Virus record (IMG/VR): IMGVR_UViG_2850756110_000003 | Reading direction: 5' to 3' (one strand) | Source: a virus | Lineage: Duplodnaviria; Heunggongvirae; Uroviricota; Caudoviricetes | Length of the DNA stretch: 35,235 bases | Part shown: piece by piece, positions 29,029 through 33,173 of the stretch | How the letters are laid out: every line of letters starts with the position of its first letter | How positions within the stretch are numbered: position 1 is the first letter of the stretch | The notes under the pieces: model-generated | The model's database searches: none | What the model was told of the DNA's origin: nothing | What the model saw: only the letters and a program-made list of their open reading frames with translations | Position numbers and translations under genes: made by a program

Positions 29029-29577
29029 ATCTCTTAAAAATATTATTTTTGAGATGTGCTTCTACACTGACAGTAAGAACAAAAGATAATGTATCAGCCC
29101 ACTAGATGTCAGAGGTTGGGGCATCAACCAGATGCTAACAATAATACGGATGTTTTTCCCACATGACAGAGGAAGTCAAGTATAATCTTCACAGTCCATC
29201 CCGTCCAAGGGAATATGACTCAATAGTAAAAGTTCCAGTTTAGTTAGTAGACCCACACTTTATAGAAGAGTAATTCATGATTGGACAATTTTTAAGTGCA
29301 ACAGAGATTTTAGCAAAGAACTATGTTCGTAATAAAATGGTTAAAAATCCATTTTATTCGAATTTAAAATGGAATTTTATTGAAAAAAACATCATAAGAT
29401 TAACATCCTCACCGGTTAAATCAGTACTTTGCATATCAGCTTTTTCATTTGTACTACTTTATGTTGGATATTTAAACGAATTATTTATAAAAAATAATCT
29501 TTTACATTATTTCCCGTTTAGGCATTCATTAACCGAATGGCAAACAACCATTTTAAGTGGCCGGTAATGACTCCAAC

Positions 29578-30081
29578 TTACTGATAGTGTTTTATGTTCA
29601 GATAATGCCCGATGACCTTGTCATGCAGCTCCACCGATTTTGAGAACGACAGTGACTTCCGTCCCAGCCTTGCCAGATGTTGTCTCAGATTCAGATTATG
29701 TCGCTCAATGCGCTGAGTGTAACGCTTGCTGATAACGTGCAGCTTTCCCTTCAGGCGTGATTCATACTGCGGCCAGCCATCCGTCATCCATACCACGACC
29801 TCAAAGGCCGACAGCAGGCTCAGAAGACGCTCCAGTGTGGCCAGAGTGCGTTCACCGAAGACGTGCGCCACAACCGTCCTCCGTATCCTGTCATACGCGT
29901 AAAACAGCCAGCGCTGACGTGATTTAGCACCGACGTAGCCCCACTGTTCGTCCATTTCAGCGCAGACAATCACATCACTGCCCGGTTGTATGCGCGAGGT
30001 TACCGACTGCGGCCTGAGTTTTTTAAGTGACGTAAAACCGTGTTGAGGCCAACGCCCATAATGCGTGCACTGGCGCGACAT
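29578..30081 (-). CDS. insB: IS1 InsB frame, copy 2
   Basis: 167-aa ORF identical to copy 1 in the track. Confidence 0.9.
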
Positions 30082-30275
30082 CCGACGCCATTCATGGCCA
30101 TATCAATGATTTTCTGGTGCGTACCGGGCTGAGAGGCGGTGTAAGTGAACTGTAGTTGCCATGTTTTACGGCAATGAGAGCAGAGATAGCGCTGATGTCC
30201 GGCAGTGCTTTTGCCGTTACGCACCACGCCTTCAGTAGCGGAGCAGGAAGGACATCTGATGGAAATGGAAGCCAC
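30000..30275 (-). CDS. insA: IS1 InsA, copy 2
   Basis: 91-aa ORF identical to copy 1. Confidence 0.9.
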
Positions 30276-32069
30276 GCAAGCACCTTAAAATCACCATCAT
30301 ACACTAAATCAGTAAGTTGGCAGCATTACCTAAGTGGCCAATTGACAATTATTGGTATTGTATACCCCCTTGTTATAGGTTTAGTAAGTGTCTTATTCCC
30401 AAAAAAGGCAGATAGAAAAATAGCCCAAACTGCTTATCAGCGTTACTCAGGATTCATGCTTGCTGGACTCAGCGGGCTTTTCTTATCAGGATTTATACTT
30501 CTCAGTGTACTAATTAAAACTGTCTTTGGAAGTTATCTTTATGGTATAGCTTGTCTAATCAGCATATTATGGCTTTTGATAAACATAGTTCTTTCTATTT
30601 GGTTCTTTATCGTGAGTCTTGAAATTCTTGATGATGTAAAACGGCAAATAATTATAAAGCGATACATTGCCTTCGAAATAGTAATGCCCCATATTTGTAA
30701 CAAAATCTCAGCCAAGCTTAGGTTATACCCTATCTATCAAAAACATAACTATTCAAATTTAGAAATCAAGCAAGCCGATTACAAAGGAGAATACATATCT
30801 GTGGCTAGCAGTTATTCTAAGGAAGATGAGTTAAGTTTATATCACCGTCCTTTTCAACTTACTCTTAATCTTATTAATTACCAACTAAAAAAGAAGAATC
30901 ATTTTGCGTCATTTGTCATTGGTGATAATCGTACAAAAGAAACAGAATCCACGGGTAAGATACTTTTTAGCGTTAAAAATATCAAACCAGACAGCTTATT
31001 AATAAAAATACTTAAGCAATGTTTTTATAGGGCTCCGATTAAAGGAGGAGATTTTTCCGTAAGTCTTACAATGCAGGCTATAACAGCAGATACGTATATG
31101 TATCTGCGGGATTCTGATCTCATTAGTTTTGACAATGCTATCTCTGCATTAATTAATAACTTTAATAATCTCTGCGATTTGTATTTTTTTCAAGATGATA
31201 ATACCAACAATAACTTCTTACTGATCACTACAGAATTATTTGAACGGAGTTTTCAATATGAGTTTTCAGATGAAGTTTATAAAATATCAAATAATTCCAT
31301 GGATAAAATTAATCTTTCTGAAAGATTTTTTGATTTATGTCTTTGGAGCGGAGTGCGTATTATCAATAATAGAAAACATCTTATCAGCAATGAACTTTGT
31401 ATCTATATGGGAATTACTCGTTCACAATGGTCAATATTAACAGAATGGTTCCGAAACAACCAATCACTCTTAAATGCCTCGCTTCGTTCACGTTATAATC
31501 GTATATTAAGAACCTATACCACTGTTTGGGAGCAATATCAAGAAAGCATAAACTTTCGTTTCTGCAATACAGAGAATTCAGATTTATTTGAATTATTTTG
31601 CAAAACGCAACTACAAGAACTTCCATCGATGATTATTGATGCAACACAGACTCGCGATCCTTCTACTATTGATACAGCCGTCGATCTTATTAACCGATGG
31701 CAGCACTCAATGAATATTGACAGCCATTCGGTAGAAAAATACAGTTACAAAGGCCAGCTTTTTAACCCGGTTTTTTTCATATCCAAAAAACTAAACTTCA
31801 ATTCAGACAGAGAGTGGTTCAATATTGCCATCATAAATGCGTTGACTGACATGCGTATATGCACATGTCTTTATCTGACATCAAGAATCAATACTTCTGA
31901 CAAACTAATGACACATTACATTAAACTTATTTTAGAGGGTAAACTTATTGACCAAACCGGTGGATATGAAACTCCCACTGAAGAAATTGATAATGCAAGC
32001 CAACTAATCAAGATATTAATTAGAATCTGCCTGTGGACATGGTCTGAAAATATGGAGCACAATGGGTAG

Positions 32070-33173
32070 ATGAATAGTTTAGCAAGGCGTTTACGTGACT
32101 ATGATAAAACAGACATGGTGATGGGCAGAGTTTACAGTAATGTTTTTGACTGTGGATTTATTGATATGGAACAATCATGGATTCAGCTATTATTAATTTT
32201 TTCTAACAAGAACGATAGCGTATCAAAAGAAATAAAAGAAGCAATAGAAAACAACTATATAACATATCGTGAGAAGCAACGACTCATTGGAGTATTATCA
32301 AAAATTTGTAACTCCATCGAATACACTAAAATCAAGCTGACTTTAACATTGGACGATCTCCAAACAAAAAAAGAAAACTTAAGAAAGTTGCTTCAAGAGC
32401 ATATTAACATGCTAAAGAAAGATCTTGATATGAGACTTCAGGATGCTGCCATAGATGTACATCGACTAGATAGCACTGCACGTAAAACATCAGAACATCT
32501 TCGTAAACGCATCAAGAAAACGCTCCCTCTTTCACTTTTCAAATCTATTGATTTTAAGCAGGCTAGCGATTGTTTCACAAAACATAAGATATCTATTAAG
32601 ATAGATAAAGAACCGTATGCCGAAGGAATAGAATCCATCCCTTATATCAATGAAGGTGATATTCAAGCAGACTTAATTCTCAAGGACATCCAGAGAATAA
32701 TACTTTCAAATTTATTTAGCACTGGCTGTTCGCAACATACCGTAATAGAAGATTTCAATATGTTGATTGATCACATAAAATCATCTGCTGACTTGGCTGG
32801 CAAACTGGTTCTTGTGATGAGTAAAGAGATCTTTCAGCAATATAATCGTATGCTTTTCGATAATCCCAACCTCAGAGAACTAATGAGAAAAAATGATGAT
32901 GGCTCTATGAACATAACTACTGAATCCGGTACCCGTAAGGTTTACTTCTTACCATTTGTTAATCAACCATTTTCTCTTGTGGTAAAGGATAACTACTTCA
33001 CTAAATTAATTATTAGAGAATATGATAATAATAAGTTAGTAAATGTCACTTCAGAGAATATCAAAAGTGACTCAGATAAATTCAAGCTAACTCTTAACTA
33101 TGAGTTGAATATAGTATTTGAAGGAAACGCTGATTTAAAAATAGCTCACTCGCAAAGAGTGACATCAGAATAA
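32070..33173 (+). CDS. Novel AT-rich gene B: 367-aa soluble hypothetical protein, translationally coupled to gene A
   Basis: ATG at 32070 immediately follows the gene A stop (TAG at 32067-32069); no transmembrane segment or motif I recognise; same low-GC composition as gene A. Confidence 0.7.
   Translation: MNSLARRLRDYDKTDMVMGRVYSNVFDCGFIDMEQSWIQLLLIFSNKNDSVSKEIKEAIENNYITYREKQRLIGVLSKICNSIEYTKIKLTLTLDDLQTKKENLRKLLQEHINMLKKDLDMRLQDAAIDVHRLDSTARKTSEHLRKRIKKTLPLSLFKSIDFKQASDCFTKHKISIKIDKEPYAEGIESIPYINEGDIQADLILKDIQRIILSNLFSTGCSQHTVIEDFNMLIDHIKSSADLAGKLVLVMSKEIFQQYNRMLFDNPNLRELMRKNDDGSMNITTESGTRKVYFLPFVNQPFSLVVKDNYFTKLIIREYDNNKLVNVTSENIKSDSDKFKLTLNYELNIVFEGNADLKIAHSQRVTSE

Follow-up and report, generated by a model that had tools for sequence, protein, structure and literature searches.

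A twice-broken gene for a membrane-anchored protein with a predicted capsid-like domain in the cargo slot of a decaying P2-like prophage

The virus record IMGVR_UViG_2850756110_000003 was analysed as a single stretch of 35,235 nucleotides (nt; hereafter the window). It holds a P2-like prophage, with an AT-rich island inserted between a gpD-like gene and an ogr-like gene. An earlier note, made from the letters of the window alone, had described this island as two tightly coupled genes, a membrane protein A and a soluble partner B. The island instead carries one gene, which we call X. In this allele, gene X has been inactivated twice, by an insertion sequence (IS) of the IS1 type in codon 96 and by a nonsense mutation in codon 672 (W672*), and the allele is a dead pseudogene.

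The remains of gene X are spread over three segments of the plus strand. Codons 1-95 and one base of codon 96 (29277..29562, +) encode the N-terminal cytoplasmic segment, the first transmembrane (TM) helix and the start of TM2. This segment ends in the left copy of the target-site duplication, TAAGTGGCC (29554..29562). The duplication is followed by IS1 on the minus strand (29563..30330, -), with insA and insB on that strand and terminal inverted repeats of 23 nt, and by the right copy, TAAGTGGCC (30331..30339). The length of 768 bp, the inverted repeats of ~23 bp, the 9-bp target duplication and the insA/insB pair are those of IS1, and the Pfam models DDE_Tnp_IS1 and Zn_ribbon_InsA matched the identical locus. 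The rest of codon 96 up to codon 671 (30340..32066, +) covers the remainder of TM2, TM3, TM4, a small alpha/beta domain and an alpha-solenoid. An in-frame TAG (32067..32069, +) then stands where intact alleles have TGG (Trp672). Codons 673-1039 and the stop codon, formerly 'gene B' (32070..33173, +), cover a loop with a GRxY motif, a helical region and a predicted HK97/encapsulin-like domain (32529..33170, +; residues ~826-1039). A terminator-like hairpin, for which the evidence is weak, lies 8 nt past the stop codon (33181..33204, +).

Comparison with intact orthologues showed how these pieces belong together. 'A' and 'B' share a reading frame and are divided by the TAG at 32067-32069 alone, and B starts at the very next codon. 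When IS1 was removed, the remaining DNA matched 5 of 5426 complete Escherichia coli genomes at 98.9-99.8% identity, and in each annotated match the region was a single coding sequence of 3120 nt. A base-by-base alignment resolved its 1039 codons into 671 + 1 + 367. At codon 672 all five orthologues have TGG (Trp), whereas a G-to-A change at nt 2015 has produced TAG in the window. The five remaining differences from the closest E. coli allele were all non-synonymous, a pattern that would fit drift after inactivation, in numbers too small for significance. Intact 1039-residue alleles were also present in Shigella sonnei and S. boydii; those of E. coli include WP_049143931 (RIVM_C040348) and WP_264716223 (VG38-53E1). 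The exact broken allele of the window was found in many complete chromosomes of 4.6-4.8 Mb, so the lesions are real and fixed in a lineage rather than sequencing errors.

Several details of the earlier description were borne out. Excision of IS1 together with one duplicate joined 29277-29562 to 30340-32069 into the in-frame, 671-codon 'gene A'; its N-terminus contains four hydrophobic helices, as a multi-helix membrane domain would; and 'gene B' is an open reading frame (ORF) of 367 codons with no TM segment. The two-gene structure itself was wrong, as B continues the frame of A and the orthologues have a single ORF of 1039 codons. There is no membrane protein with a coupled partner, only one polypeptide that a nonsense mutation has split in the window. 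The view that IS1 makes the allele inactive was correct as to the outcome but understated the damage, which extends to W672*, a nonsense codon in gpD and an IS in ogr.

Gene X belongs, on sequence comparison, to a large unannotated family. A database search gave >180 homologues, nearly all of them single proteins of ~1030-1070 residues, and all 33 homologues that we aligned were single ORFs. An exhaustive profile search extended the family to 503 representative clusters at 50% identity, 342 of them at E <= 1e-10, again nearly all with lengths of 1030-1150 residues. In a scan of species-representative genomes, members also appeared in Pseudoalteromonas, Shewanella, Alteromonas, Psychrobacter, Acinetobacter, Vibrio, Kangiella, Aliikangiella and Desulforhopalus. 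Profiles from Pfam, NCBIfam, PADLOC, PHROG and the sequences in the PDB matched neither the fragments in the window, nor full-length X, nor distant members of the family, in agreement with the earlier statement that no catalytic motif or known family could be recognised. In particular, the 5027 hidden Markov models of defence proteins in PADLOC-DB v2.0.0 (2023) gave 0 matches at E <= 1 for A and B, and 0 for 33 family members. Gene X was not found among 50,697 phage records searched at the DNA level and with tblastn, and a search of the open-access literature found no description of the X family or of any capsid-fold defence protein.

The structure of full-length X was predicted with AlphaFold2 from the alignment of 33 sequences. 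The model had a mean predicted local distance difference test (pLDDT) score of 80 and a predicted template modelling (pTM) score of 0.64; for the C-terminal 367 residues alone, these values were 83.5 and 0.75. The model places TM helices at residues 46-66, 85-115, 134-158 and 160-190, followed by a long exit helix, a small alpha/beta domain (~236-330), a large HEAT-like alpha-solenoid (~334-680), a helical region (~700-820), and a C-terminal alpha/beta domain of ~210 residues (~826-1035). Counts of lysine and arginine, read by the positive-inside rule, put the N-terminus, the 116-133 loop and the segment after TM4 in the cytoplasm (N-in/C-in), which makes the ~850-residue soluble part cytoplasmic. 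Intact X is a 1039-residue inner-membrane protein of ~118 kDa. The only long low-confidence loop (residues 686-700; 32109-32153 in the window) lies between the solenoid and the capsid-like part and contains an invariant G691-R692-x-Y694; this GRxY motif might act as a hinge, be cleaved or mediate binding.

Conservation along X is uneven. Column identity was highest in TM2-TM4, with 87-90% at residues 101-140 even though subfamilies are only ~25% identical to the query orthologue, and it was lowest in the C-terminal domain (37-50%). Invariant residues include Q96, P105, G133, D194 and R197. The ratio of non-synonymous to synonymous substitution rates was 0.43 between two intact E. coli alleles of X, whereas the genes for the sheath and the tape measure in these prophages gave 0.08-0.11.

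The 'B' part of the protein is predicted to adopt the fold of HK97 capsid proteins and encapsulins, an assignment that is well supported for a prediction and that the earlier note had overlooked. The C-terminal domain has the HK97 fold in the predicted structure, where it was set beside the major capsid proteins of lambda, HK97, 80alpha, T5, phi29, SPO1 and phiKZ, a capsid protein of a P2-family phage and the satellite protein Ccm. Moreover, the model of full-length X independently matched T4 gp24 and an encapsulin. Foldseek, an independent method applied to the full model, likewise ranked phage capsids first, at E-values of 2e-3 to 1e-1. Sequence profiles gave little: Phage_capsid, Linocin_M18 and the other capsid and encapsulin families of Pfam did not match X at E <= 1, and a PDB profile search with the C-terminal domain gave no match. 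In a permissive Pfam scan of 14 C-terminal domains, SU10_MCP was the sole family matched by more than one of them (2 of 14), at a sub-threshold E of 0.011. Unlike the shell proteins with this fold, i.e. major capsid proteins and encapsulins such as maritimacin of T. maritima, to which it shows no significant sequence similarity, the domain of X is the tail of a 1039-residue integral membrane protein and its gene is not part of a phage structural module. Assembly of a shell, cargo loading and genome packaging are not implied for X.

Elsewhere, gene X was a lone gene at every locus, and a partner gene was never conserved. Relatives were found on 377 of the 72,556 plasmids in PLSDB, and 216 of these 377 were conjugative. 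Its company at these other sites was rich in defence genes, in line with the earlier expectation. On IncF/ColBM plasmids, a paralogue with ~25% identity (WP_013362823) lies among genes for AAA_15/21 ATPase, RES-domain, DUF3800, VapBC, YobI-ATPase and OLD-TOPRIM proteins. In a P4-like island, X accompanies HNH, FRG, DUF3800 and SRAP genes and adjoins the alpha primase; in Serratia it lies between phn and nrdD with DUF3800, HNH and TIR genes. In an integrative and conjugative element (ICE) it occurs with SMC-ATPase, HEPN/RES and Mrr genes; in Pectobacterium it adjoins a KAP NTPase; and on a Pantoea plasmid it adjoins PIN_12 and PLD genes. Furthermore, a type I restriction-modification (R-M) operon with the order hsdM-hsdS-X-hsdR was found in Aliikangiella, Kangiella and one IMG/VR element (L024, L031 and L056); the start and stop codons at most of the gene boundaries overlap or abut. 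Such placement between hsdS and hsdR, similar to that of PrrC, applies to these three loci and not to the window. Among 119 ORFs from 13 species-level loci, type I R-M was the only recurrent defence neighbour.

Two of these loci showed further features of their own. In all sampled IncF plasmids, a divergent trio of genes encoding an 85-residue protein, a 196-residue protein and a 518-residue AAA_15/AAA_21 ATPase lies upstream of the X paralogue (L003-L007, 6944-9612), and may be a separate ATPase-based defence system. The Kangiella operon continues past hsdR with a 725-residue AAA_5 (McrB-like) ATPase and a 277-residue gene product (L031, 16457-19470), which suggests a composite defence operon.

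The island that carries gene X (29029..33267) fills the space from the gpD stop codon to the region upstream of ogr exactly, as judged from its base composition and from homology with empty sites. Its G+C content (GC) is ~32%, as compared with ~53%; GC was 31-38% across 500-bp intervals of 29001-33500, IS1 excepted, whereas most of the window lies at ~50-60%. The AT-rich block reported earlier is therefore real according to the GC profile, its flanks are gpD-like on the 5' side and Ogr-like on the 3' side (Pfam Phage_GPD and Ogr_Delta), and the results support the proposal that this cargo was acquired horizontally and that the P2-like prophage carries it in a variable slot. Similarity to prophages with an empty site ends at ~29024 and restarts at 33268, and other cargos share this junction. 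The D gene of the P2-like prophage was present in 1118 of the 5426 complete E. coli genomes, only five of which had gene X. Of 1202 genomes, 720 had an uninterrupted match to a probe across an empty D-ogr junction, and in most of the others the match was split. At sampled filled sites, unrelated single genes occupied the identical position, encoding a 500-residue PIN-domain protein (L040, 7526-9028), a DUF3800 protein (L041, 7392-8561), a 340-residue hypothetical protein (L039, 7421-8443) or a YecA-family protein (L038, 6312-7451). With its preserved flanks and unrelated alternative cargos at one junction, the site qualifies as a cargo (moron) hotspot of P2-like prophages. The slot was filled in up to ~40% of these prophages, and the site seems to be a minor hotspot of P2-like phages that has been under-described. 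It differs in position from the classical hotspots of Rousset et al. (PMC9122126).

On the left, the island is bordered by a pseudogene of gpD (late control D, baseplate hub; 27919..29028, +), with a Phage_GPD match at 28108-29028 (E 1.8e-16). Its codon 41 has changed from TCA (Ser) to the nonsense codon TAA at 28039-28041. In a direct comparison, five E. coli orthologues had TCA or TCG at this codon, and TAA was unique to the window. Many intact D genes of E. coli are called by the Prokaryotic Genome Annotation Pipeline (PGAP) as a 'VgrG/Pvc8 family' protein of only 266 residues; this shortening is apparently an artefact of annotation and not a lesion. On the right lies the zinc-finger gene ogr (33309..33504, +), the 3' end of which has been lost to an IS; Ogr_Delta matched 33309-33545 (E 4e-14), and likeness to intact ogr stops at 33504. 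The IS in ogr is an IS3-family (IS2-like) element of ~1.33 kb (33505..34834, -), and the Pfam models HTH_Tnp_1 and rve matched the identical locus. In total, four inactivating lesions (IS1, the IS3-family element and two nonsense codons) lie within ~7 kb of the prophage end, and the prophage is decaying by IS insertion and nonsense mutation in a manner typical of Shigella.

A hok/gef-family toxin gene (35095..35235, +) lies at the prophage end, and a gene of this family was found just past ogr in all related prophages examined (e.g. L001, 21421-21561). An Rfam scan of 27500-35235 gave no match, including none to a Sok-like RNA near hok/gef at the gathering threshold, and the window stops at the last codon of that gene. 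In this P2-like lineage, the FI-FII-E-T-U tail operon lies on the strand opposite to gpD and the V-W-J-I-H-G block (L001/L002, 10614-16199; 26577-27761 in the window), an orientation that differs from the P2 arrangement.

Three readings of gene X fared poorly against these results. A two-gene operon, in which a membrane protein A acts with a soluble partner B as in two-component abortive-infection systems, matches the appearance of the window, where a stop codon parts two ORFs and the next codon is an ATG. However, the frame is shared, all five complete E. coli orthologues have TGG at codon 672, and 33 of 33 aligned homologues as well as nearly all of the ~500 clusters are single proteins. Moreover, Met673 is not conserved (the consensus is Leu), and the nearest GGAG lies ~13 nt 5' of the ATG, which we judged too distant for a Shine-Dalgarno sequence. 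We consider this model very improbable, and the intact orthologues refute it. The names that PGAP and UniRef attach to some members, major facilitator superfamily (MFS) transporter or nicotinate-nucleotide adenylyltransferase, are even harder to credit, since they contradict each other, other members are labelled 'hypothetical', and no model of Pfam or NCBIfam, MFS included, gives a match even at E <= 1. An MFS transporter would also require twelve TM helices instead of four, and ~80% of X is cytoplasmic; for lack of a supporting profile and because of the wrong number of TM helices, both labels were rejected. A role as a morphogenetic protein of the P2-like phage, i.e. in capsid-related structure or assembly, could be read from the HK97-like C-terminal fold and from the position between the late genes D and ogr. 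Yet of the 1118 E. coli genomes with this D gene only 5 have X, X occurs in none of the 50,697 phage records (DNA, tblastn), it is common on plasmids and also found inside R-M operons, the prophage has its own P2-family capsid gene, and the composition of X is foreign to the prophage. Direct tests thus contradict a structural role, which has very little probability left.

The strongest alternative is that X is a fitness factor of mobile elements other than strict anti-phage immunity, for instance in superinfection or entry exclusion at the membrane, in competition between plasmids or satellites, or as a membrane-tethered scaffold, encapsulin-like or derived from a capsid, that serves the carrier element in housekeeping or under stress. 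The wide distribution of X over plasmids (377 of 72,556, of which 216 conjugative), prophages, a P4-like island and an ICE would suit such a role, as would the loci where all neighbours are housekeeping genes and the lack of a recognisable effector motif. Against it, the three hsdS-X-hsdR operons and the repeated company of TIR, RES, HEPN, OLD and DUF3800 genes form a signature of defence cargo, and no encapsulin cargo enzyme lies adjacent to X. A membrane tether with an 850-residue cytoplasmic part is, to our knowledge, unlike known entry-exclusion proteins. On balance we regard the fitness-factor reading as unlikely, although it deserves more weight than the three readings above.

The best explanation as a whole is that X is a stand-alone, membrane-anchored anti-phage protein with a capsid-like domain, to which we assign an even chance. 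The genomic context makes it somewhat probable that an anti-phage or anti-mobile-element function resides in this one polypeptide. As to mechanism, we offer a speculative and rather improbable scheme in which mimicry allows the variable capsid-like domain to sense or poison the assembly of capsids, and the conserved TM bundle is the effector that acts through membrane depolarisation and abortive infection. According to this scheme, the fast-evolving capsid-like domain would engage the capsid-assembly machinery of the infecting phage by mimicry, through binding to or co-assembly with the major capsid protein, the scaffold, the portal or the prohead protease. The solenoid would pass a signal to the conserved TM bundle, which would then oligomerise or open, depolarise the membrane and abort the infection. 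Alternatively, X might be a membrane-tethered decoy that merely poisons procapsid assembly.

Several points weigh against the proposal of a membrane-anchored anti-phage protein with a capsid-like domain. No catalytic or pore-forming motif was identified in X, and the sensor and effector roles of its domains are guesses. The strong conservation of the TM helices could instead reflect binding to a conserved membrane partner of the host. The fold assignment rests on AlphaFold models from a 33-sequence alignment, the Foldseek E-values are marginal with none <= 1e-3, and sequence similarity of X to capsid families was nowhere significant. The defence association is qualitative, as the scan of neighbours is no formal enrichment test, and the X loci of Shewanella, Acinetobacter and Psychrobacter have housekeeping neighbours, with X alone among them in Shewanella. 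Finally, PADLOC-DB dates from 2023, and the family may have been described later.

X can be compared with several known defence systems. PrrC, from the prr locus of E. coli, is a stand-alone defence gene embedded in an operon for type I R-M. X resembles it as a single gene on mobile DNA that is located between hsdS and hsdR in three loci, but X has no anticodon-nuclease or ATPase domain, is anchored in the membrane, and in most copies does not lie beside an R-M system. PifA of the F plasmid is a membrane-associated exclusion protein, triggered by gp1.2 and the capsid protein gp10 of T7. Like PifA, X is a single large protein of plasmids and mobile elements that would act at the membrane, and in the proposed model it would, by analogy, share a capsid-related trigger and a membrane-damaging output. 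Its architecture differs from that of PifA, however, and none of the PADLOC models matched. With Kiwa (the membrane protein KwaA plus KwaB) and RexAB-type systems, X has in common that a small TM module is coupled to a cytoplasmic part. This is the kind of two-component architecture that the earlier note envisaged; unlike these systems, X is one polypeptide with no partner gene and no PADLOC match.

CapRel and Lit are capsid-sensing defences, and Fv1 of mice is a restriction factor derived from gag, a domesticated gene of the capsid family turned on viruses. The concept of immunity keyed to a viral capsid protein would be shared between these systems and X, and a defence domain with the HK97 fold would, like Fv1, be a capsid gene turned against viruses. 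X has no homology to any of the three, and the analogy is functional and hypothetical.

The value of the allele in the window is that it points to an intact family. That family, which the annotation tools now in use either overlook or wrongly name an MFS transporter, is spread over Enterobacterales plasmids, P2-like prophages, a P4-like island, ICEs and marine Gammaproteobacteria. A membrane-anchored HK97-fold protein that is kept in defence islands is outside every described kind of system. If intact X protects against phages, it would represent a new single-gene defence family. A more specific view, which we hold only tentatively and consider unlikely as it stands, is that X is a bacterial immune protein built around a domesticated HK97 domain, a tethered capsid mimic that recognises or poisons capsid assembly and is coupled to a four-helix membrane effector. 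If this is true, X would parallel in bacteria the gag-derived restriction factors, of which Fv1 is one, and would give the HK97 fold a new fate, a third kind of exaptation beside those of encapsulins and gene-transfer agents. A host that turns a capsid-fold domain on phages would add a new principle to bacterial immunity.

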